Source: Escherichia coli (GTDB lineage Bacteria; Pseudomonadota; Gammaproteobacteria; Enterobacterales; Enterobacteriaceae). Taken from it: 64,000 nt of DNA. The stretch lies in the NCBI RefSeq assembly GCF_017348835.2, contig NZ_CP072315.1. One strand, given 5' to 3'. Each line of letters opens with the position of its first letter. Within the stretch, counting starts at the first letter, position 1. The position numbers and the translations under genes were made by a program. The notes beneath the pieces were generated by a model, which saw only the letters and a program-made list of their open reading frames with translations, ran no database searches and was not told where the DNA came from. Positions 13,990 through 49,414 of this stretch are shown piece after piece.

Positions 13990-15320
13990 GGACTTTAATG
14001 ACAGTGGTAGTGATGGATAGGCTCATTTCCATTGTCGTCATTTTATCGGACAAGCCTCTTCGTCCTACAGGTTTAAGCTGACAATGGTAGTGATTGGATG
14101 ATCTCACTACTGTTGTCACTCAGTTCTTTGAGCGGACCCTTCCCTCGGTTGGTCGGCATTAACAACGGTAGTGACTCGATTGGCTCACTGCCATTGTCAT
14201 CGTGTAAATGACGTACCTTATCAGCTCAGCTGAAAGCAATGACAACGGTAGTGACTCTAATTGCTCACTGCCATTGTCGTCGTGTCTATTGAGAGCCTTA
14301 TCAGTGCACCTGAAAAGCAATGACAACGGTAGTGATTCTAATGGCTCACTACCGTTGTCACCGTGTGTATTGAGAGGATGGTCCACTTAACTGGACGTAT
14401 ATGACAATGGTAGTGACTTTAATAGCTCACTACCATTGTCGGTGTGTGAATTGAGAGGATGAGCAGCTCAGCTGTACGTCCATGACAATGGTAATGACTT
14501 AATGAGCTCACTACCGTTGTCACCCTGTTAATTAAGAGGCTCATCTGCTCTTCTGGAAGGCTATGACAACGGAAGTGACTTGCTGGGCTCACTGCCATTG
14601 TCGCCGTATGAATTGAGAGGATCATCCGCTCTTCTGGATGGCAATGACAACGGTAATGACTTAATAGGCTCACTACCATTGTCACCCTGTGAATTGAGAG
14701 GATGATCTGCTTAACCAGACGGCCATGACAACGGTAGTGACTTTCTGGGCTCAATACCGTTGTCACCCTGTGAGTTAAGAGGTTGACCCGCTCTACTGGA
14801 CGGCCATGACAACGGTAGTCACTTTCTGGGCTCACTACCGTTGTCGCCATATAGAATGAGAGGAGCATCAGCTCAACTGAACGGCAATGACTACAGTAAT
14901 GAGCTGGATGAAGCATAACCATTGACATCTGGCCCAACCGGAAGCCGTATTCGCCAATCCAATCGAGATTCACAATGGCCGTGACTCGCCGCATTAAGTT
15001 CCGGTGTCCTCCTAAAGCTGAACGCACACTCGGAGGACAATGACAATGCCAGTAAGGTACACATCATTACCATTGTCACTATAGCTACCAGAGAAGCCGG
15101 GATTTGAATGTCGATGGTAGTGAGTGGGTCAACTCACTGCCATTGTCACCCCGTTACGATATTTTCCGTTGGATGTACTGGCCAATGAAGTAAAGCGTAG
15201 AAACCGGGTGTTAACAGGTGACTCAGGAGAAAGCGTTGAATTTCGCAATCTCGATCTACATAGGGTGGTAGAGAACAATGACAACGGTAATGACTTTTGA
15301 CTCATTACCGTTGACGTGAA
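13990..15320. repeat. tandem array of about 16 units of ~80 bp, each containing a 15-bp-arm palindrome (TGACAACGGTAGTGA / TCACTACCGTTGTCA); putative Rep-binding iteron / incompatibility array
   Basis: Period about 80 bp read directly; inter-palindrome segments are also conserved (CCTGTGAATTGAGAGGATGA); adjacent to the rep gene. Confidence 0.65.
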
Positions 15321-16479: not shown

Positions 16480-17340
16480 AATAAGTTATCACTGAATGTG
16501 TAAACAGATTGGTGAATAGTAAGCCCCAGCGAACTCTATGTCACTGGATGGATCATTGTGATGATCCATATCTGTGCATAAGTTCTACCTAAAAAAACGA
16601 CTCCACTCATTAAAACTTGGCAAAAACTCTTTGCATACAATGACCTGCAACTCTTATCAACAACGGATCAGATCAAGTTAAAAAGATCTAATGAAAAGTC
16701 ACTACTATTGTCGCTCTGATCACTACTGATGTCAAAAAACTCATTACCAACGTTATAATAATCACTACTAATGTCAAAATAATCACTACTGTTGTCACTG
16801 ATCACGTCTCAGGCCTTGTGCCGTCTGGCCTGGAGGCAGCGGGGATCTCTTTTGATCTATCAGGAACACTAAGGTACTAATTATTGGAACTACCTTGTGG
16901 AAAATGGGGATAAATAAATGCTTAGTTCTTATACAGGTCTCAACTTGCCTCCCTGATAAAAACTGTCGTCAAAGCTAAATCACAGCCACAGGCATTTTCG
17001 GTGGATAAATTTTTGAGAAATAGAAGCATACATGCAGACTCGTGTCGCAAGTAATTGAAAGTAATGATTTATTTAAATAATGCGAGTCACCTTACCTCAC
17101 AGTGGAAGTTTAAGTCTAACCTCACTACCATTGTCACTTAAAATCATTACCAACGTCGAAATAGTCTCTACCATTGTCTTTTAAGTCACTCCCGTTGTCA
17201 CTTATGTCGCTACTGTTGTCAGTGACAATGCTCCAGCCCAGTAACCATGCGGCCTACAGCGTACCGGGATCTTCTTTGTACTCTCTGGCACCTTTGGGAT
17301 CATTTATTGGATCTACATGAGGGATAAAATCTTTTGACGA
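16480..17340. other. putative origin of replication (oriV) for the rep gene at 15391-16479
   Basis: Two clusters of five ~21-bp direct iterons (TCACTACnnTTGTCA; 16690-16800 and 17100-17230), each followed by a GATC-rich segment; AT-rich. Confidence 0.5.
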
Positions 17341-38843: not shown

Positions 38844-41525
38844 ATGGAAGCTATCAATAATTACAATAGCGGTTTAAATCGCCATCAATTAGGTGGGTTT
38901 ATCCCTGTTTACGATCAATTAGCAGGGACTCACTATTTTTTGATTGATGGCAACAGATTAGGGTTTATGTTTATCTGTAATCCATCACCTGGAGTTTTTG
39001 ATAATCAGCAAGATGTTCTTGCTGAAATGTTCAAAATGGATTTTCCTACAGATACTGTCTGTCAAATATCTCTGACTGCATTGCCAGACTTGACTTTACA
39101 GCTTAGTGCTTGGTCAGCTGTGCGAGGTGGGCGTATGACTGGGAACGATAAGCTTAAAGCAGATCTGCTTAATGGTTATCAGTTGGACTACTACGACAGA
39201 AGTATGCATAAGCCTTTAAAACCTGATCATGATAACCTTATGTTGAGGGATTTTCAGGTATGGATCTCGCTATCGATTCCTTTACAGTCTGCCCTTCCTA
39301 CCGAGCTGGAACATTCGCGTATCGATTCACTTTACTCTGAACTTGTAAGTAAGTTAATTACGATTGGACTGCATCCGATTAAGGTCGATGCAGAAAACTG
39401 GCTCTATTGTATAGATAAGGTCGTAAACCCCGGAAAGAACTCTCGGTGGGCTGAAGGTTTTATAGACGTTAACACTATGAAAAGGCTTAATGAACAAGTT
39501 AACGTTCCCGGCCGTAAGTATACAGTCACAGAAAATCATTTCTCATCAGTCACACAAAGTGACGACGAATCTGAGCATCGTTACTTCAAACAACTTTCCG
39601 TTGTAAAGTTTCCTGAATACGTCAATTTCGGTTGTATGTATGAGTTAGTAGTTAACTGGATGCATGGACGTAAGACAATTTTCAGCCCATTTATGATCAC
39701 TCAGACTGTTCAGTTTGCCGATCCGCTCAAGTTGTCAAAAGAAAACGTCCGCTACAAAGCAATCACTAATAAACAGGCAAGTATACCTTCAGTTGTCACA
39801 TTCTGCCCTCGCCTGCGGGATATGGATAATGACTACATGGCCGTAACTCGCGAGCTTGAGGATGGCGCAAAGCTTTTAAGAGGGTATCTTACTTTCACTG
39901 TTATGGGTAGTAATGCCAATTCTGTGCAGACAGCAGCTAACGATCTCAAATCCTTTTACCTCGAAAGCCGGGTCAAAGTAGCAGATGATTCCTTTATCGT
40001 TTTCCCGTCATTTATGTCATGTCTGCCAATGTGCAATGACCCAAAGACAATTTTCGACCTTGACCGATCCGAAGTAGTGAGCAACACCGGAGCGGCTCAT
40101 ATGACGCCGATCTTTGGGCCCTGGAAAGGTAATACAGATAGACCAGTACTGAGTTTAGTTTCTCGTGAAGGTCAACTCATGGGACTTGATATTTTCAAGA
40201 CTTCTGCAAGCTATAACATGGTTATTGGTGCAACGTCAGGTGCAGGCAAGTCATTCTGGACAGCATATCTAATCAATAACTATCTTGGAGCTGGACCGCG
40301 ATCTAATAACCTCGTTCATTATCGCTCAACATTTAAGCATTTTTTAGAAAACGAATACCCAGATGATGATCCTGATGGTGCTCAAGTTTTTGTAGTGGAC
40401 GTGGGGCGTTCTTACCAGGGGATTGCGGAACAATATACAAACAGTCAATTTATTGATTTCGGTAAAACCCCTGACTTCACCCTAAATCCCTTTGCCTTCC
40501 TAACTGACATCACTGTTAACGACGATGTATTTAACGAAGCACCTGAATTTACCGGTGAATCAACTTCAAACGATGCAGAAAAAGACAAAGTTGCTCAGAC
40601 CATAATGGTTCTGAATCAGCTAAAAATTATGGCTTCAGAGAAAGGCCTTATCGATGATTATCAACAATCAGTGATGCTTCAGCTTATTGCAGAAGAGTAC
40701 CAGGAATCCAGAAAATCAGGTCGGACCGGTTCAATAACCGGCTTTGCTCTGCGTTGCAAGAAGCATGAAGACAAACGTATAAAGGATATTGGGGAGCAAC
40801 TCGGAGCATGGTGCGAAGGTGGAATTTATGGGCACCGGTTTACCGATACGTTGCCTCCAATCAACTTCGACAGCAGATTTATTGTTTTGGAACTGGAGGA
40901 GCTAAAAGGCACCCCCCACCTTCAGACAGTTGTTTTAATGTCTATCATTCAGGCTGCTCAGCATGCAATGTTCATCAAAAAAGATGGGCGTCGTCGCTTG
41001 TTCATCCTAGATGAAGCTTGGGAGTACATTCGTCCTGATAATTCATCAGGTGCCGGAAATCAATCAAACCAATTCTTCTCTTCCTTCCTCGAAGCGGCAT
41101 GGCGTAGGTTCAGGAAAACAAACTGCGCTGGCATCTGTATCACACAGTCGTTTGAAGATTATTTTACTTCTTCTGTTGGCCGGGCCCTGACTGCTAACTC
41201 GCCTTGGAAGATAATCATGAAACAAGAAAAAGAAAGCATTGAAGCAATGAAGGCTAATAAATATTTTTCTACTTCAGATGCAGAATATGAACGAATGAAA
41301 AATATTCGTACAGTCAAAAAGGTGTTTTCAGAGATGTTAGTCAGGTTCGAAAACTTCCAAGAGATCTGTCGGTTATACGTAGACCGGAAAATGGAGCTTT
41401 GTTTTACTACGGATAGTGCTGACAGGAGTAAATTATGGGAAATTCAAAGCCGCGAGAATTGTAGCTATGGCGAGGCAATAGAAATTCTCTATGCTCAAGA
41501 AGTAGCAGCGGGTTTGGCCGCGTAG
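38844..41525 (+). CDS. trhC: TraC/TrhC-like T4SS ATPase (VirB4 family)
   Basis: 893 aa; Walker A GATSGAGKS; Walker B-like LFILDEAWEY. Confidence 0.8.
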   Translation: MEAINNYNSGLNRHQLGGFIPVYDQLAGTHYFLIDGNRLGFMFICNPSPGVFDNQQDVLAEMFKMDFPTDTVCQISLTALPDLTLQLSAWSAVRGGRMTGNDKLKADLLNGYQLDYYDRSMHKPLKPDHDNLMLRDFQVWISLSIPLQSALPTELEHSRIDSLYSELVSKLITIGLHPIKVDAENWLYCIDKVVNPGKNSRWAEGFIDVNTMKRLNEQVNVPGRKYTVTENHFSSVTQSDDESEHRYFKQLSVVKFPEYVNFGCMYELVVNWMHGRKTIFSPFMITQTVQFADPLKLSKENVRYKAITNKQASIPSVVTFCPRLRDMDNDYMAVTRELEDGAKLLRGYLTFTVMGSNANSVQTAANDLKSFYLESRVKVADDSFIVFPSFMSCLPMCNDPKTIFDLDRSEVVSNTGAAHMTPIFGPWKGNTDRPVLSLVSREGQLMGLDIFKTSASYNMVIGATSGAGKSFWTAYLINNYLGAGPRSNNLVHYRSTFKHFLENEYPDDDPDGAQVFVVDVGRSYQGIAEQYTNSQFIDFGKTPDFTLNPFAFLTDITVNDDVFNEAPEFTGESTSNDAEKDKVAQTIMVLNQLKIMASEKGLIDDYQQSVMLQLIAEEYQESRKSGRTGSITGFALRCKKHEDKRIKDIGEQLGAWCEGGIYGHRFTDTLPPINFDSRFIVLELEELKGTPHLQTVVLMSIIQAAQHAMFIKKDGRRRLFILDEAWEYIRPDNSSGAGNQSNQFFSSFLEAAWRRFRKTNCAGICITQSFEDYFTSSVGRALTANSPWKIIMKQEKESIEAMKANKYFSTSDAEYERMKNIRTVKKVFSEMLVRFENFQEICRLYVDRKMELCFTTDSADRSKLWEIQSRENCSYGEAIEILYAQEVAAGLAA

Positions 41526-41553: not shown

Positions 41554-41585
41554 AACCAGATGTCTCATAAGAATCTGGTTTTTTA
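41554..41585 (+). terminator. rho-independent terminator after trhC
   Basis: Hairpin AACCAGAT-11nt-ATCTGGTT followed by TTTTTT. Confidence 0.6.
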
Positions 41586-41949
41586 TTGTATGCCTTAAGT
41601 AAACAAATGAGGTTATGACTTAATGAGTTCATCACTGTGCTGCAAATTTTGGTTTTATAATTAATATGGCTTAAAAACAGTGACATAATTACAAATCGCA
41701 TTTAGGTTGTGTACGCATTAAGTAAACAAAATTTATAACATCAATACTGACTTTATAAGATGAAATTCACGTAAATTACATTTTTGTTTACCAAAGGTAA
41801 TCAAAGGAGCGCGGCATTATTAGTGAAAACAGATCACTGGTGTCATATTGCATACAAAACTTAATATCCTTTAATCATTCTTCTAAAAGTTTAATATTAA
41901 CGCTTTGGTTTATGAAAATTTATCCAATTTGCTCACCGAAGACTTTTAA

Positions 41950-44900
41950 CTTATTTAACCCCCTTTATCGCCAATCTGTGATTTTCTAATGTTAGCCTAC
42001 AGTTCTAGGGCCCTTGCTCCCATGATGCGAATCCTTCCACCTAATAAAGATTAACGCCTCATTCCTGTATGCCGGTCTTACGACGCCAGTGCACGGACAA
42101 TTTTTGGTCATCACAAGGCCAGGCGGGAGATTTAATCAGGGCGTGGTGTTCCTTAGCAGCAGCTGCGGCACTGTAAGCCGAAGGCGGAATTAACTCCTTT
42201 ATCGCCATCTGGGGACGTCATTAGGGGTACCCCTTTTAACTTGCTCAGGACCATTAAGCTAAAATTCCGGATAGTGATTGACGTAAGATTTAGGCTAAGC
42301 AGGTAAAGTGATCCCCGCTCCCGGGGTGACCACTTTATACAAAAGGCCGATCGGAAGATTGTCCTTAGGGAAATATTCCTTTAACACAGCACGGGCACTT
42401 ACTGCCGCTGCCGGATTTAACCCCCTTAATCGCCAAACTGGGGTACTGTCCTGATGCTGGCCTTCAGTTCTGGGCTGGGTGGCTATCACTTCCTCCCATA
42501 ATGCGAAATGTAACTGCTGATACAGATTAACGTCATATTCCTGCGTGCCGGTCTGCCAACACCAGTGCACGGGCTTTTTTCGGTCATCACATTACCGGGC
42601 AGGAGATTTTATCAGGGCGTGGTGTGACTGAGCAGAAGCTGGGGCACTGTCAGCAGCTTGCAGATTTAACCCCCTTAATCGCCAAACTGGGATTCTGGTC
42701 TGATATTGACCTTCCGTGCTGGGCGGGGTTCGGTTTGCTAACACTTACTCCCATGATACGAAATGTGCCTGCTGATACAGATTAAAATCACATTACTGCA
42801 TACCGGTCTGCCGACACCGGTGCATGGGCGATTTCCGACGATCTCAAGAACATATGGGAGATTATATCAGGGAGAGTAGTATGCCTGAGCAGCATCTGAA
42901 GGCACTGTCAGCCGCTGTCAGATTTAACCCCCTTAATCGCCAAACTGGTGTTCTGTCCTCATGCAGGCCTTCAGTTCTGAGCTGGGTTGCTATCACTTGC
43001 TCCCATAATGCGAAATGTACCTGCTGATACAAATTAACGTCGTATTCCTGTATGCCGGTCTGCCGACACCAGTGCTCGGGCTATTTTCGGTCCTAACAAG
43101 ACCTGGCGAGAGATTTAATCAGGGCGTGGTGTGACTGAGCAGCAGCTGGGGCACTGTTATCCGCTTGCAGATTTAACCCCCTTAATCGCCACACTGGGGT
43201 TCAGTCCTGATAGTGTCCTTCCGTCCTGGGCTCGGTTGCTAACACTTGCTCCCATTGCGCCTGCTGATACAGATTAAAGTCACATTACTGCATACCGATC
43301 TGCCGACTCCGGTGCATGGCTTTTTCCGATAATCACAAGGACGGACGGGTGATTTTATCGTTGCATAGTATGTCTGAGCAGCATCAGAAGGCTCTGTCAG
43401 CCACTGGCAGATTTAACCCCCTTAATCTCCAAACTGGGATCAGTCCTGATAGTGTCCTTCCGTCCTGGGCAGGGTTGCTAACACTTGCTCCCATGATACG
43501 AAATGCGCCAGCTGATACAGATTAACGTCTCATTACTCCATGCCGGTCTGCCGAAACTGGTGCATAGCTTTTTTCGATATTCGCATGAACAGACGCTTGA
43601 TTTTTTCAGGTTGTAATATACCTGAGCAGCATCTGAAGGCACTTTCAGTCGCTGTCAGATTTAACCCCCTTAATCGCCAATCTGGGATTTTCTGATGTTA
43701 ACCTACAGTTCAAGGCCCTTGCTCCCATGATGCGAACCTTGCAACCTGATAAAGATTTAAGCTTCATTCCTGTATGCCGGTCTTACGACTCTAGTGCACG
43801 GGGACTATTTTCGGTCATAATAAGACCTGGCGGGAGATTTAATCAGGCGTGGTGTGACTGAGCAGAAGCTGGGGCACTGTCAGCCGCTGGCAGATTAAAA
43901 CCCTTTATTCGCCATCTCAAGACGTCATTATGGGTAGTCCTTTTAACTTTCTAAGGACCATTAAGCTTAAACTCCGTTTAGAGAATGACGTAAGATTTAG
44001 GCTAAGCAGGTTAAGTGATCCCCGCTCCCGGGTTGAACACTTTATTCATCGTACGAGCGAAAGATTGTCCTTCGGGAAATATTTCTTATACACCGCTCGG
44101 GCACTTACAGCCACTGGCGGATTTAACCCCCTTAATCGCCAAACTGGGGTACTGTCCTGATGCTGGCCTTCAGTTCTGGGCTGGGTGGCTATCACTTGCT
44201 CCCCTAATGCGAAATGTGTCTGTTAATACAGATTAACGTCATTTTCCTGCGTGCCGGTCTGCCGACACCAGTGCACGGCCTTTTTTCGGTCATTACATTA
44301 CCGGGCAGGAGATTTTATCAGGGCGTGGTGTTACTGAGCAGGAGCTGGGGCACTATCAGCAGCTTGCATATTTAACTCCCTTAATCGCCAAACTGGTGTT
44401 CTGTCCTCATGCTGGCCTTCAGTTCTGGGCTGGGTTGCTATCTCTTGCTCCCATAATGCGAAATGTATCTGCTGATACAGATTAACGTCATATTCCTGTA
44501 TGCCGGTCTGCCGACACCAGTGCTTGGGCTATTTTCGGTCATAACAAGACCTGGCGAGAGATTTACTCAGGGCGTGGTGTGACTGAGCAGCAGCTGGGGC
44601 ACTGTCATCCGCTTGCAAATTTAACCCCCTTAATCGCCAAACTTGGGTTTTGTCCTGATGCTGGCCTTCCGTTCTGGGCGGGGTTGCTATCACTTGCTCC
44701 CATCATGCGAAAAGTGCCTGCTGATACAGATTAACGTCATATTCCTTCATGCCGGTCTGCCGACACAAATGCACGGGCTTTTTTCGGTCCTTACAATACC
44801 GGGCAGGAGATTTAATCAGGGCGTGGTGTGACTGAGCAGCAGCTAGGACACTGTCAGCCGCTGGCAGATTTAACCCCCTTAATCGCCACACTGGGGTTGC

Positions 44901-45000
44901 CTCCTGAAGTTGGGTTTCAGTTCTGGGCTAGGTTGCTAACTCTGCTCCCATAATTCGTAGTGGGCCTACTCAAGAGATTAACACCTCATATCTTTAGACT
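41950..45000. repeat. tandem array of about 13 diverged direct repeats of ~235-257 bp (at least three unit subtypes, higher-order duplication)
   Basis: Anchor CAGATTTAACCCCCTTAATCGCCAAACTGGG recurs at about 41955, 42416, 42664, 42921, 43171, 43411, 43660, 44121, 44371, 44620, 44868; every unit contains TCGCCA and ATTTAAC. Confidence 0.8.
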
Positions 45001-45361
45001 GGACTGACGACAACGATTCACAGTTAGGAAACGTAAATCAGCACACCGGTGAGATAGATTTTAGGGTCTAAGCAAGAAATAGGGTAGGCGTGAAGATTCA
45101 TTAATGGAGCTCATAACGTCAAAGCGTAGAGAAGTCGACAAGAATCGTGGTTTAAAAAGAATGAGCATTAGGTATGGACTAGAGAGTCTGAGCTCTCATC
45201 TGCAAGTTAAGCTCACAAAAAATCATAAAAAAGTAAACAAACATTAGCTTAGGATTGAAACAAAGGATAGAATTGTACGTATAACAATGAAATGGACGCA
45301 TTATGCGTAAAGTTTACATATATGCGTAAAAGTCGGTTTTCAGTGCAAAAAGGTCATAACC

Positions 45362-46615
45362 ATGAATTTACTTGAAAAGATCGCCCTCGTTGGTCAGCGC
45401 ATGAAAAGCGAGCAGATTTCTCTTAAGGAATCTCTGATGGCTTCATCAAGAGTATCTGTTTCTGATGATAGTGTTGATGGTGTTGATAGACTGATCTACA
45501 ACCACTGTTTAAATAAAAAAAATCTCTCTGATTTTTTTGGGAAGTCACGAGTAACGTTCAATAAAATACTTTCGGACTTAGAAGAAAAAGAAGTTGTTGG
45601 TGCACCTATTTATCAAAACAAAAATCATCTTTACACCCGCTGGGATGTTCAAAAAATAATGGATGCCCTGGGTTATCCCAAGTACCGCGATCATTACTTT
45701 AGCAGAGCTATTGTTACTCAGAATCATAAAGGCGGTACAGGGAAAAGCACTACATCTGTAGCTTTAGCAGTAGCAGCTGCTTTAGATCTACAACTGAATG
45801 CACGTGTATTAATGATCGAATGGGACCCACAAGGTTCGATTGGAAGCAGCATGATTCAAAGTGTCTCAGAAGATGATGTCTTCCTTACAGCAATTGATGC
45901 AATCCTTGGAATTTATGAAGAAAATTCTGAGTATAAAAAATATTTAGATTCAGGATTCTCTGAAGAAGAAATCATCACTAATATGCCTTTTTCAACGCAT
46001 CTGCCAAACTTGGACGTGATAACGGCATTTCCGACAGATGCTCGTTTTAAAGATAAATACTGGCAATGTTCTAGAGAAGAACGAACGTCTTTGTTACTAC
46101 GTTTCAAGGAAGTTATCTTACCGGTACTGAAGCAGAACTATGATTTGATTATTATAGACACTCCACCTGAAGATTCACCTTTGATCTGGGCTGCTGACGA
46201 AGCGGCCGATGGGATTCTTGTCGCAGTGTCACCACGTGAATATGATTACGCCTCTACTACAGACTTCATGCTTACAATAAGTGAAAGGTTTAAACAATCA
46301 CCAAGTAAGGGCGATAATTTAAAATGGTTCAAAGTTCTTGCTGTCAATGTTGATGACAAAAGTCCATATGAAAGAATAGTTTTGGATAAATTAATCAGAA
46401 CTGTTCAGGACCTTTTGATGTCCGCTAACATAAAAAATTCTGAAGCATTTAAGGCAGCTGCTTCCAAAGGGCGTACAGTGCTTGATATCAAAAAATCAGA
46501 GGAACTTTGTTCCGCAAAGCAACTTGATGTCGCAGAAGAATCTGTATTACAGGTATATCAACAATTTATAAATGAAATAAAAAGTTTTTCAGCTAAGCAA
46601 GGAGTTAACGCATGA
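45362..46615 (+). CDS. parA: type Ia partition ATPase ParA (SopA/P1 ParA-like, with N-terminal extension)
   Basis: Deviant Walker A KGGTGKST; 417 aa. Confidence 0.8.
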   Translation: MNLLEKIALVGQRMKSEQISLKESLMASSRVSVSDDSVDGVDRLIYNHCLNKKNLSDFFGKSRVTFNKILSDLEEKEVVGAPIYQNKNHLYTRWDVQKIMDALGYPKYRDHYFSRAIVTQNHKGGTGKSTTSVALAVAAALDLQLNARVLMIEWDPQGSIGSSMIQSVSEDDVFLTAIDAILGIYEENSEYKKYLDSGFSEEEIITNMPFSTHLPNLDVITAFPTDARFKDKYWQCSREERTSLLLRFKEVILPVLKQNYDLIIIDTPPEDSPLIWAADEAADGILVAVSPREYDYASTTDFMLTISERFKQSPSKGDNLKWFKVLAVNVDDKSPYERIVLDKLIRTVQDLLMSANIKNSEAFKAAASKGRTVLDIKKSEELCSAKQLDVAEESVLQVYQQFINEIKSFSAKQGVNA

Positions 46616-47616
46616 GCGATGAGCAACATATCGGGAATGATAAATCTCGATATTTAAACGCACCAAAGCGGACAGAAGTCGGTCACCGTTCAGGTCTTGC
46701 GGGTTTGAAAACAGCACCTCGCATAAAAAAGTTATTCACTCTTCATAAGGGCCGAAGACTTGAAGCGGAACATGTGATTGTTCCAGCCCAGAGAGTGGAG
46801 AAGGAGACCTTAGTCCATCCAGCAAACCCACGAAATCAAGAAGCCCTTACAGATTATTCTGTTAGAGATATTCTTAAGCAGATTGAAGAAAGAGGGGTCG
46901 ATACCGAAGGGATCGCTGTAAAAAGAGATGGGGTTTATTTATTAATAGAAGGAAGTCGCAGACGTTTCTGCTGTATAAAGGCAGAAAAGGATCTCCCCCT
47001 GTGGGTACTACCGGATGAACTAACCGAAGATGATATAAATTCAATTATATCCGCAGCACAAACATCTCGAAAATTTTCATATAGAGAAGTTGGGTTTCAA
47101 TTTATCAAGAAAATGGAAGAAAAGGGATTTTCTACTAATGAAGAACTCGCAGCATATCTTGGGATTAGTCATGTATCGGTAGCCAAAAGAATCCAGGCGG
47201 CACGTATTGACGAAACATTGATCTCTTTATTCCCGGATTATGAAGGAATACCGAACTCCTATTATAGTCGCTTGTCTCGTTTACAGAAATATGTGCAAAA
47301 AAATCTATTTCCTTTAGATGAAGTAATAGATAATGTTAAAGAGGAAACAAAAGATTTAGACATTGGAGATCTCCAAGTTGCCCAAAAAGTTGTAATGGAG
47401 AAAATCACACAATCTGTGGAAAGTGTTTGTGAAAAATCTTATTCCACAAAATGGGAAACAAGTGATCTTATTACTTTTGATAACAAAGATAAGTATGCAA
47501 GAATCAGTAAAAACAATACTGGAAGAAAAATTCGCATTGAATTCAATAGGATAAGTGCGGGTTTTATTAAGGAGCTAGAGGAGTTCATAAAAGAAAAATT
47601 AAAAGTATCAGAATAA
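46612..47616 (+). CDS. parB: partition protein ParB (centromere-binding)
   Basis: ATGA overlap with parA; ParB box-like LLIEGSRRRF; 334 aa. Confidence 0.7.
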   Translation: MSDEQHIGNDKSRYLNAPKRTEVGHRSGLAGLKTAPRIKKLFTLHKGRRLEAEHVIVPAQRVEKETLVHPANPRNQEALTDYSVRDILKQIEERGVDTEGIAVKRDGVYLLIEGSRRRFCCIKAEKDLPLWVLPDELTEDDINSIISAAQTSRKFSYREVGFQFIKKMEEKGFSTNEELAAYLGISHVSVAKRIQAARIDETLISLFPDYEGIPNSYYSRLSRLQKYVQKNLFPLDEVIDNVKEETKDLDIGDLQVAQKVVMEKITQSVESVCEKSYSTKWETSDLITFDNKDKYARISKNNTGRKIRIEFNRISAGFIKELEEFIKEKLKVSE

Positions 47617-47677: not shown

Positions 47678-48067
47678 TTAATATGGGGTGTGCGCAGGTT
47701 CAGACATATAAGGTCTTAGTTCTATATGAACAGAAGCGCCATTCCCATCATTTACTACGTTTAAAGGTGCTTTGCCCGGCAATGACATAGTTGCAACGTC
47801 AGGTCCAGAAACAGCAAAATTATTTTCTGCTGAAGGCATTACTGTAAAAATCTTTATAGCAACATTTTCATGTCTAAATAAAGAAATCCCAAAAGTAGAA
47901 CCAGCTTCGGTATTGCTCACGTCCACAACCACAGGGGTTTTTCCTAGATATTCATTAGTTAGTATGTTTTTTACTAATGCCCCTTCCGGGACAGTATAGA
48001 TACGGTATGGATATGCTAAAACTGAGTGACAAAAACATAATAAAATAACAATTAATGTTTTTTTCAT
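47678..48067 (-). CDS. secreted protein (129 aa)
   Basis: Signal peptide MKKTLIVILLCFCHSVLA; last gene of the four-gene operon. Confidence 0.5.
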   Translation of the reverse strand: MKKTLIVILLCFCHSVLAYPYRIYTVPEGALVKNILTNEYLGKTPVVVDVSNTEAGSTFGISLFRHENVAIKIFTVMPSAENNFAVSGPDVATMSLPGKAPLNVVNDGNGASVHIELRPYMSEPAHTPY

Positions 48068-48585
48068 AGATTATCCTCATTCAAAAATAAAAGATATAAC
48101 TCTTGAAAATCGTGGTTATTAATTAGGTCCGCTTTTCCGGGAAAATCGTAACTAACAGAAAATAAAAGAGAAAGAGAATCTTTTCCTTTTGCTTTGGGAG
48201 AGATTCTGCTAAAAGCACGGTTAATAAACATAAGTTGATCTTCATTGTTGAAGCAAAGTCCAAGCATTCCAACCGTAGGAACTACGAATGTGCTTACGCT
48301 GCCTGGGGGCAAAAGTTGCTTACTACGGGCATTGTAAGCACAACGACTACCACCTAGCGTTAGGCCTGAAAGCTCAATAAAACTTCTGGTTCCATTCTTG
48401 GCGACAAGCCAAACATCAGTTCCTGAACTTTCGACACGTAAAGTAACTTTTCCGTCAGTAAAGGCCTCACTTTTATTGTATAGAATAGGGTCAAAACCAA
48501 CTGTCGGGAGTTCTTCGATTTTACTTTCTACTGACTGACAACCAGTCAGTAATGCAAACAATAAAAGTGTGATAACTTTAATCAT
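48064..48585 (-). CDS. lipoprotein (173 aa)
   Basis: Lipobox LLTGC; start/stop overlaps with neighbours. Confidence 0.55.
   Translation of the reverse strand: MIKVITLLLFALLTGCQSVESKIEELPTVGFDPILYNKSEAFTDGKVTLRVESSGTDVWLVAKNGTRSFIELSGLTLGGSRCAYNARSKQLLPPGSVSTFVVPTVGMLGLCFNNEDQLMFINRAFSRISPKAKGKDSLSLLFSVSYDFPGKADLINNHDFQELYLLFLNEDNL
48440..48451. promoter_or_regulatory. palindrome site AAAGTAACTTTT (dispersed family)
   Basis: Read directly, inside the lipoprotein gene. Confidence 0.3.
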
Positions 48586-49414
48586 CCCGCTTCCTTAGAT
48601 TGTTTTTGGCGCTGGTTATAAAAGATAATGATTCACCGGGGTAGAGAATTGTTTCTTTCGTCCAATAACGATAACCACCGAGGATATCTTTTCTTTTCTC
48701 AATATAAACCGGTTCAGAAAATTCTAAATGTTGATATTTCGGAAGAGATAAGATTTTATATTTTACTTGTCCAACTAAGAGGTAATTCTTCTCTTTAGGA
48801 TTGATGGTTACTGAATTACCAACACTTTGAGGTATGTTAAGTTTTTTTATATTTAGATCAGAATCGTCAGGAACGGACACTTGATCATTAGATGTCTTTC
48901 CGGGAAGAGTAAACCCTTTACCCTGATCCGGTCCAAAGATGGCAATTACATCTTTGTTGTTTCTTGTGATCGAAACGATAGCCTGAAGGGGCGTATTAGC
49001 AAGGTCATTTATAAACGATATAGTTATACTTGATTTAGGCTCGACCCAAATAATGCTTTTTCCGGATGTGCCTTCGCTTAATGCAATTTTTTCATTTAGT
49101 AAGATTTTATTTTTGGCAATGATATTATACTCAAGTTTCGGTATCACCATAAAAAGTGATTCTTTATTTGAAACATTCATGATTTCTAAGAAATTGGTTT
49201 TGGTCATGCTGGTCTTTAGAACAGGCCTATATTTACCATTTATAAACCACCTTCCGTTTATAAGCTCCGCTTTAGCAGATATAAGTGAATCACTTTTCTG
49301 AGCGGCAGAAGAAAAAGCATCTTTTCTTTGCTCTTTCTCTTGATGTGGTGCAGCTGCTGCGTGAAGATGCAAAAGTAATGTTGAAATTGAGATAATCTTC
49401 CATTTTATCTTCAT
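48578..49414 (-). CDS. secreted protein (278 aa)
   Basis: Signal peptide; overlaps both neighbours. Confidence 0.5.
   Translation of the reverse strand: MKIKWKIISISTLLLHLHAAAAPHQEKEQRKDAFSSAAQKSDSLISAKAELINGRWFINGKYRPVLKTSMTKTNFLEIMNVSNKESLFMVIPKLEYNIIAKNKILLNEKIALSEGTSGKSIIWVEPKSSITISFINDLANTPLQAIVSITRNNKDVIAIFGPDQGKGFTLPGKTSNDQVSVPDDSDLNIKKLNIPQSVGNSVTINPKEKNYLLVGQVKYKILSLPKYQHLEFSEPVYIEKRKDILGGYRYWTKETILYPGESLSFITSAKNNLRKRDD

Follow-up and report, generated by a model that had tools for sequence, protein, structure and literature searches.

Genomic context and structure of the array

The 64,000-nucleotide stretch of Escherichia coli DNA considered here (contig NZ_CP072315.1), called the window below and used for all positions given without another label, carries the type IV secretion system (T4SS) ATPase gene trhC and, downstream on the same strand, the partition genes parA and parB. 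Between trhC and parA lies a tandem array of about 3 kb, and this array, the 21-bp core found in its units and the relationship of that core to the ParA and ParB proteins are the subject of this report. A preliminary description, made from the sequence of the locus, had named the flanking genes as trhC, parA and parB, and these assignments are borne out (Table 1). The GC content of the array is approximately 0.50, versus 0.31-0.41 for its flanks.

The 3.9 kb around the array is 100% identical to many Salmonella and E. coli IncHI2 plasmids, and this array-spanning segment matches 1,128 PLSDB records overall. The annotated gene order of plasmid pD90-1 (trhB-htdT-trhV-TraC(TrhC), an unannotated gap, ParA, ParB, four small genes and parM) also matches. 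Because of this identity and gene order the window is recognized as an R478-type IncHI2 backbone, inside the transfer region Tra2, R478 itself (BX664015) lying outside the plasmid collection used for comparison.

Tandem Repeats Finder reports a single array (42404-44982) of 10.5 copies, with a period of 249 and 71% matches. Alignment of units anchored on their best-conserved motif adds diverged left-hand units and gives the 13 units of Table 1, which are head-to-tail direct repeats on the same strand, adjoin the par operon and have one inverted-repeat core each. The thirteenth is truncated and decays near 44990. The earlier count of about 13 units stands, although the range of 235-257 bp given with it was too narrow, the actual lengths being 226-258 bp. 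Average-linkage clustering of pairwise identities reproduces exactly the subtype order previously proposed, F-C-A-B-A-B-B-F-C-A-A-A, to which the truncated thirteenth unit is added. The higher-order duplication also suggested at that time is real, since U01-U03 resemble U08-U10 at 86, 83 and 94% identity, respectively. A 31-mer said to be present in every unit is so only approximately: an exact copy occurs in one place, a copy with at most one substitution in 8 units, and a copy with at most three in 10.

The 21-bp core

Across 25 distinct units from four IncHI2 plasmids, the best-conserved 21-nt window is the core ATTTAACCCCCTTAATCGCCA, with a majority identity of 0.998 as against a unit mean of 0.84. 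With no more than one mismatch it is found in 11 units of the array, always on the + strand, and nowhere else on either strand of the 64 kb; the number of matches expected by chance, from 100 shuffles, is 0. In both C-type units (U02 and U09) the core is degenerate, that of unit 9 having a position-weight-matrix score of 17.4 versus 40.5 for a perfect core. No candidate core site is present 3' of parB within the window.

Positions 3-6 and 12-15 of the core, both TTAA, form an inverted pair flanking a C run (TTAA-CCCCC-TTAA), and positions 16-21 (TCGCCA) are identical to Box B of phage P1. The preliminary description had noted the likeness of TCGCCA to Box B, which is correct, and had compared the heptamer ATTTAAC to Box A, for which the short inverted pair TTAA-C5-TTAA is the better description. 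The annotated right half of P1 parS reads ATTTCAAgGTGAAATCGCCAcgATTTCAC, and the P1 parS segment ATTTCAAgGTGAAATCGCCA (NC_005856) has the same Box B as the IncHI core and the same dyad-to-Box-B distance. In the core and in P1 A2-A3-B2 alike, Box B begins 7 bp 3' of the dyad centre. On account of this shared hexamer and spacing we regard the IncHI core as the counterpart of the P1 A2-A3-B2 module, the "small" P1 parS, which is functional without integration host factor (IHF).

In Providencia and Klebsiella plasmids the variant core has AACAA and TTGTT as its arms. The pairs 3/15 and 4/14 are substituted on both sides with complementarity kept and, judged from the arms themselves, such compensatory change is characteristic of a site recognized by a symmetric dimer.

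Table 1. Position of the array, its units and cores, and the adjoining genes and signals in the window
Feature	Position	Strand	Unit start	Unit length (bp)	Basis
trhC, TraC-family T4SS ATPase, 893 aa, left boundary gene	38844..41525	+			ORF and annotation
Hairpin and T-run, 3' of trhC	~41555-41585				Read directly from sequence
Tandem array, 13 head-to-tail units, trhC-parA gap	41942..44990	+			Tandem Repeats Finder, unit alignment, clustering
Core, unit 1, ATTTAACCCCCTTTATCGCCA, 1 mismatch	41953..41973	+	41942	236	Core scan
Degenerate core, unit 2 (C subtype), AATTAACTCCTTTATCGCCA; Box B intact, palindrome decayed	42188..42207	+	42178	226	Sequence, unit alignment
Core, unit 3, exact	42415..42435	+	42404	249	Core scan
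Core, unit 4, exact	42664..42684	+	42653	258	Core scan
Core, unit 5, exact	42922..42942	+	42911	249	Core scan
Core, unit 6, exact	43171..43191	+	43160	240	Core scan
Core, unit 7, Box B mutated to TCTCCA	43411..43431	+	43400	248	Core scan
Core, unit 8, exact	43659..43679	+	43648	236	Core scan
Degenerate core, unit 9 (C subtype), ATTAAAACCCTTTATTCGCCA	43894..43914	+	43884	226	Position-weight-matrix
Core, unit 10, exact	44121..44141	+	44110	249	Core scan
Core, unit 11, 1 mismatch, in C run	44370..44390	+	44359	249	Core scan
Core, unit 12, exact	44619..44639	+	44608	249	Core scan
Core, unit 13, exact, ~470 bp 5' of parA start codon	44868..44888	+	44857		Core scan
Candidate par operator: palindrome ACGCATTATGCGT and two TATGCGTAAA copies, 19-bp spacing, just 5' of parA	45296..45330	+			Repeat search
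parA, 417 aa, long (type Ia-size) Walker ATPase	45362..46615	+			ORF, PDB and Pfam matches
parB, 334 aa, P1-type ParB	46612..47616	+			ORF, structure/Pfam/tblastn matches
ORF, open reading frame.

ParB, ParA and covariation with the site

ParB had previously been described as P1-type, and homology searches agree. Its residues 150-330 align with the crystallised P1 ParB fragment 142-333 (1zx4/2ntz; E 4e-16), it matches positions 1-125 of the 126 in Pfam model PF08775 (E 9e-11) and, by tblastn, it shows 28% identity to P1 ParB over 84% of its length (E 4e-22). The layout consists of an N-terminal GSRRR arginine patch, a central helix-turn-helix (HTH) and a C-terminal P1-ParB domain of the dimer-forming, Box-B-reading kind; the patch sequence LIEGSRRRF is invariant in all seven aligned ParBs, P1 included, and arginine patches of this type characterize the CTP-binding folds of the ParB family. 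Scores against TIGR00180 (parB_part; 47 bits, cutoff 58) and the SopB-type NCBIfam model (48 bits versus a cutoff of 274) are below threshold, the latter match being weak. ParA contains the Pfam domains AAA_31 and CbiA and a weak N-terminal HTH at residues 50-79 (E 0.034), and its structural matches include Vibrio cholerae ParA2 (7npd; E 4e-37) and P1 ParA (3ez2; E 3e-12).

Covariation was examined in an alignment of seven ParBs plus that of P7. A recognition helix of the form SHVSV[AS]K accompanies TTAA arms in IncHI1 and IncHI2, and one of the form [TIV]ES[VI]RK accompanies ACAA/TTGT arms in Providencia and Klebsiella. In the C-terminal domain, GR...EFNR is found with Box B TCGCCA (IncHI1, IncHI2, Providencia and P1), GQ...EFKR with TCGCAG (Klebsiella) and KR...EFSR with Box B TTCCCA (P7). 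The pair KD aligned with P1 residues 287-288 is kept where Box B begins TCG (P1 and all IncHI ParBs) and is RR in P7; residue 288 of P1 we take to be the discriminator between P1 and P7. The direction of every one of these changes fits a ParB that would read the core.

The palindrome and short repeats just 5' of parA (Table 1) are distinct from the array core, and an equivalent 20-bp repeat (2.3 copies) is found 5' of parA in the IncHI1 plasmids p3498 and R27. By analogy with the par operator annotated for P1 in NC_005856, the ACGCATTATGCGT palindrome is likely to be an operator that overlaps the par promoter and is bound by ParA through its HTH.

Arrays beside parAB in other plasmids

The parAB neighborhoods of plasmids with progressively more distant ParB were compared (Table 2). 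The ParA and ParB protein accessions of R27 are the same as those of p3498. In the IncHI1 plasmids the trhC-parA gap is also approximately 3.1-3.2 kb, and the unit outside of the core is unrelated to the IncHI2 unit. In pCF10-tmexCD1 an insertion occupies the place of trhC and of most repeats, the surviving units being those beside parA; the gene block that abuts the array (L003 5981-7101) includes a protein with a TnsA-endonuclease domain (Tn7-like).

Table 2. ParB identity, repeat unit and site in related plasmids
Plasmid	Group	ParB identity	Unit length	Copies and location	Core or site
Window, pD90-1, pHZ003	IncHI2	100%	226-258 bp	13 upstream	ATTTAACCCCCTTAATCGCCA
R27	IncHI1	~72%	52 and 54 bp	21.6 + 5.6 upstream	ATTTAACCCCCTTAATCGCCA
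p3498	IncHI1	72%	53 and 54 bp	~23.6 + 4.6 upstream	ATTTAACCCCCTTAATCGCCA
pCF10-tmexCD1	IncHI1B	74%	54 bp	9.3 beside parA	ATTTAACCCCCTTAATCGCCA
pRJBSI76-pV-1	Klebsiella	48.9%	66 bp	28 upstream + 2.4 downstream	AAAACAACCCCCTTGTTCGCAG
Klebsiella sp. LY unnamed3	Klebsiella	47.8%	67 bp	42.4 upstream + 14.4 downstream	AAAACAACCCCCTTGTTCGCAG
pPROV162-1	Providencia	55%	No array	1 upstream + 1 downstream	AAAACAACCCCCTTGTTCGCCA
For Klebsiella and Providencia, upstream is 5' of parA and downstream is 3' of parB.

The neighbors of the par operon in the Klebsiella IncHI-like plasmids are genes for Ig-like proteins, not tra genes, and as many as approximately 56 sites bracket the operon. The arrays 3' of parB lie at L005 10194-10349 (2.4 copies) and L006 10068-11030 (14.4 copies). 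Plasmid pPROV162-1, in which the gene context is unrelated, possesses one site approximately 115 bp 5' of parA and a near-identical one approximately 170 bp 3' of parB (L004 7594-7620 and 10172-10195), and these single sites may be the ancestral arrangement, from which arrays later expanded.

When the whole IncHI2 unit is used as an nhmmer profile, its matches to the IncHI1 arrays are confined to profile positions ~8-37, which correspond to the core. The 228-bp remainder, or spacer, was seen by distant blastn only in IncHI2 plasmids (1127 records, the very ones that match the whole array). From these two results, and from the greater conservation of the core than of the unit, the core is, on present alignments, the only conserved sequence, and parA and parB are the only genes that always accompany it.

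The array as the probable IncHI2 centromere

Taken together, these comparisons make it very probable that the type Ia ParAB system of IncHI2 has its cis-acting centromere (parS) in the array, which by the same reasoning would also determine partition incompatibility. The preliminary description had put forward a giant array of this kind, for centromere or incompatibility function, as its leading hypothesis, and every computational test that was run favors it: ParB is homologous to that of P1, the core is shared, the sites are located with parAB and track ParB, and Box B and the dyad have the P1 geometry.

The resemblance to the P1 and P7 ParABS systems extends to the HTH and C-terminal dimer domain of ParB (PF08775; 1zx4), to the long, type Ia kind of ParA, and to the site itself, in which an inverted A-type pair has a Box B hexamer immediately adjacent, TCGCCA being identical to that of P1, and the dyad 7 bp 5' of it. 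P1 differs in having a single composite site of approximately 80 bp, 3' of parB, with an IHF site and boxes A1, B1 and A4. The likeness to sopC of the F plasmid is one of arrangement; both are tandem direct repeats with one short inverted-repeat site per unit for a type Ia ParB-family protein, and by this analogy the IncHI2 array is probably also an incompatibility determinant. sopC consists of 12 repeats of 43 bp (~0.5 kb) located 3' of sopB, and its copy number exceeds need, a single repeat being sufficient for F partition. The IncHI2 units are five to six times longer, and the array is approximately 3 kb in length and 5' of parA.

The closest relative is Par1 of R27, an orthologous module in the same backbone position (trhC-array-parA-parB), with a 72% identical ParB, an identical 21-bp core and its array upstream. 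R27 has units of 52-54 bp and approximately 27 sites, in two blocks approximately 800 bp of unique DNA apart, whereas the IncHI2 units of ~249 bp have an unrelated spacer. The type I Par system of R27 is reported, in a passage of PMC4489591 that cites Lawley & Taylor 2003, as the major stability determinant of that plasmid. The identity of the core predicts cross-reaction between the IncHI1 and IncHI2 Par systems.

On this basis we propose that each unit of ~249 bp would supply a single 21-bp site for ParB, similar in construction to a minimal right half of P1 parS. In a ParB dimer the two HTH domains would recognize the inverted pair TTAA-CCCCC-TTAA, and the C-terminal dimer domain the hexamer TCGCCA. 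The thirteen sites would load many ParB dimers, which are probably CTP-dependent clamps, since the GSRRR patch is invariant, and which by spreading and condensing would form a single large partition complex. Nucleoid-bound ParA-ATP would then position, move and separate these complexes, and ParA, via its N-terminal HTH, would probably repress the operon at the separate ACGCATTATGCGT operator. Many simple sites lacking IHF plausibly do the work for which P1 has one high-affinity, IHF-bent parS. The remaining 228 bp of each unit would be a lineage-specific spacer co-amplified with the site, the array presumably growing, shrinking and being reshuffled by unequal recombination.

A number of observations weigh against this reading. 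The array contains only the A2-A3-B2-like module, present 13 times at ~249 bp and 5' of parA; boxes A1, B1 and A4 are absent from the IncHI site, and the IHF consensus WATCAANNNNTTR is absent from the array, where allowing one mismatch gives scattered hits with no shared position in the unit. The IncHI half-site xTTAAs has only two to three of six positions in common with ATTTCA of P1, the two ParBs are only 28% identical, and the best structural relative of ParA is V. cholerae ParA2, not P1 ParA. The covariation comes from only four to five independent lineages, approximately. The spacer is 84% conserved between units, some of its blocks persisting in the divergent C units as well, and natural IncHI2 arrays contain from 3 to 18 units, so the 13 found here are not individually required. 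Finally, the evidence for a function of the array is comparative throughout.

Alternative explanations

The alternative that survives best, although it is unlikely, is that ParB does bind the array but that the latter is mainly regulatory or architectural (a sink for ParB or a silencing block that adjusts parAB expression, or an insulator between the tra and par operons), with one or two sites acting as the true centromere. The array does lie directly 5' of the parA promoter region, the number of copies in IncHI2 plasmids varies from 3 to 18 without apparent plasmid loss, and the sufficiency of one sopC repeat in F offers a precedent. Such a role is nevertheless compatible with centromere function rather than exclusive of it; moreover, a separate operator-like palindrome is found beside parA, and the Klebsiella arrays also occur 3' of parB, from where they would be unable to act on the promoter.

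We consider it a good deal less likely that the array is a selfish or neutral satellite, produced by unequal crossing-over around an ancestral site and lacking a selected function. Its interior units have been reshuffled between IncHI2 lineages with 99%-identical flanking genes, two units per array have decayed cores, and unit length and spacer are specific to the lineage, all of which a satellite would explain. Arrays with the same core are present, however, in every IncHI subgroup examined (13-56 copies), within arrays the core is held at 0.998 and the spacer at 0.84, and pCF10-tmexCD1 has kept nine copies beside parA after an insertion removed the rest.

Binding of a protein other than ParB, such as a transfer regulator or H-NS/Hha, or a function as replication iterons or an origin-type array, is highly improbable. 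The position of the array inside Tra2, given that IncHI transfer is heavily regulated, would suit the former, and tandem repeats are typical of replicon iterons. Against these, the core follows parAB into contexts without tra genes and covaries with residues of ParB, the array is 50% GC as compared with the AT-rich DNA favored by H-NS, and the RepHI2 iterons are a separate array of 81-bp repeats (14155-14902) with an unrelated core, CACTACCGTTGTCAC; replication iterons were rejected for this last reason.

The idea that the array encodes a repeat protein or a structured or small RNA is scarcely credible, for although 249, 258 and 240 are multiples of three, one minus-strand frame of the majority consensus unit has no stop codon and gene callers have occasionally called ORFs of 53-217 aa in such arrays, the lengths 226, 236 and 248 break the frame. 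The six frames each contain 37-70 stops, with a longest open stretch of 100 codons, in agreement with the earlier judgment that a protein-coding role is unlikely. A search of 5.8 billion proteins with the consensus translation returned only ORFs called inside IncHI2 arrays, none of them with a Pfam domain. No Rfam match was obtained at E values up to 1, the folding z-scores of the unit on the two strands (+0.78 and +2.04) are worse than those of shuffles, and, with regard to per-unit signals, promoter-like sites are below chance (3 versus 6.6 expected) and terminators are not above chance frequency.

The spacer and changes in array length

The IncHI2 unit is approximately five times the length of that of IncHI1, and the 228-bp spacer, as far as the matches described above indicate, is IncHI2-specific. 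Two explanations of its origin were rejected: that the 249-bp unit represents five decayed 53-bp units (the position-weight-matrix scan finds one site per unit, and nhmmer no homology of the spacer to IncHI1) and that the spacer derives from another element (distant blastn matched IncHI2 plasmids only).

A lone half-site, ATTAAC, in left-arm orientation, occurs approximately 110 bp 3' of the core in 9-10 of the 13 units, examples being those at ~42526, 43033, 43521, 44232, 44481 and 44730 (unit positions 109-123); B-type units have ATTAAA. It could be an accessory contact for ParB, or merely inherited repeat sequence. A composite module, comprising the core, the spacer half-site ATTAAC and the GATT-containing blocks that are kept in C units, is a doubtful extension of the centromere model; if true, ParB might bridge within and between units to give a counterpart of the wrapped P1 partition complex that does not depend on IHF.

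The number of units among IncHI2 plasmids is 13 here, 15 in E. coli O157 180-PT54, 18 in p15-0756.1 and three in pSH111_227. The last (L011 7513-8897), which has a 1.4-kb gap, may have truly contracted, or its repeats may have been collapsed in what is an older assembly. Relative to pGENC414, the flanking genes are ~99% and the outer units 94-97% identical, and the interior units are rearranged in a manner which, to judge from the alignment, is typical of unequal exchange.

An 18-mer scan of GTDB (one genome per species, 298 Gb) detected arrays of the 249-bp type in IncHI2-bearing Superficieibacter, Pseudocitrobacter, Atlantibacter and Huaxiibacter, in addition to four isolated single matches, about as many as chance alone would give in a search of that size.

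Novelty and significance

Tandem-repeat type Ia centromeres such as F sopC, and Box A/Box B sites such as that of P1, are textbook examples. The IncHI combination of a P1-type ParB with minimal sites that lack IHF, in arrays of 13-56 sites and up to 3 kb or more, is unusual, as is the placement of the arrays 5' of parA and sometimes on both sides of parAB. A description of the core or array was not found in the searchable literature, a scope that excludes the primary papers on R27 and R478, in which the repeats were probably noticed. A full-text search for the core sequence gave no matches, and the IncHI genomics papers name only "parAB," "parABC" or "Par1/Par2," leaving the repeats undescribed.

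IncHI2 plasmids are major carriers of mcr-1, mcr-9, extended-spectrum β-lactamase and metal-resistance genes, and the array is found in more than 1,100 sequenced plasmids. The defined 21-bp core is a potential target for incompatibility-based displacement or curing of these plasmids, and the array a marker for typing by array length. Across the IncHI family the number of sites ranges from 2 to ~56 and their spacing from 52 to 258 bp, which constitutes a natural experiment on parS multiplicity and spacing that bears on ParB loading, spreading and the size of the partition complex. The series 1+1, 13 x 249 bp, ~27 x 53 bp and 42+14 x 67 bp would allow site density to be related to ParB-CTP loading and condensate size, and the paired changes in ParB (helix HV/A to E/R; EFNR to EFKR) suggest testable specificity-switch mutations.

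Other features of the window

The hairpin and T-run 3' of trhC probably terminate the trhC operon ahead of the array; the terminator scan made no call at this position, the loop being longer than 8 nt. The array at 14155-14902, which comprises 9.3 copies of its unit with a 243-bp higher order, is the RepHI2A iteron/incompatibility region. Short runs of 21-bp iterons (16719-16797 and 17163-17221) lie approximately 2 kb beyond this array. What we take to be the HI2 replicon-typing primers match exactly at 15208-15232 and, with two mismatches, in the 14155-14902 array. Between parAB and parMR is a cluster of four genes (47678-49414, minus strand, and beyond), encoding hypothetical proteins of 129, 173 and 278 aa and a metallophosphoesterase, which is conserved in IncHI1 and IncHI2.

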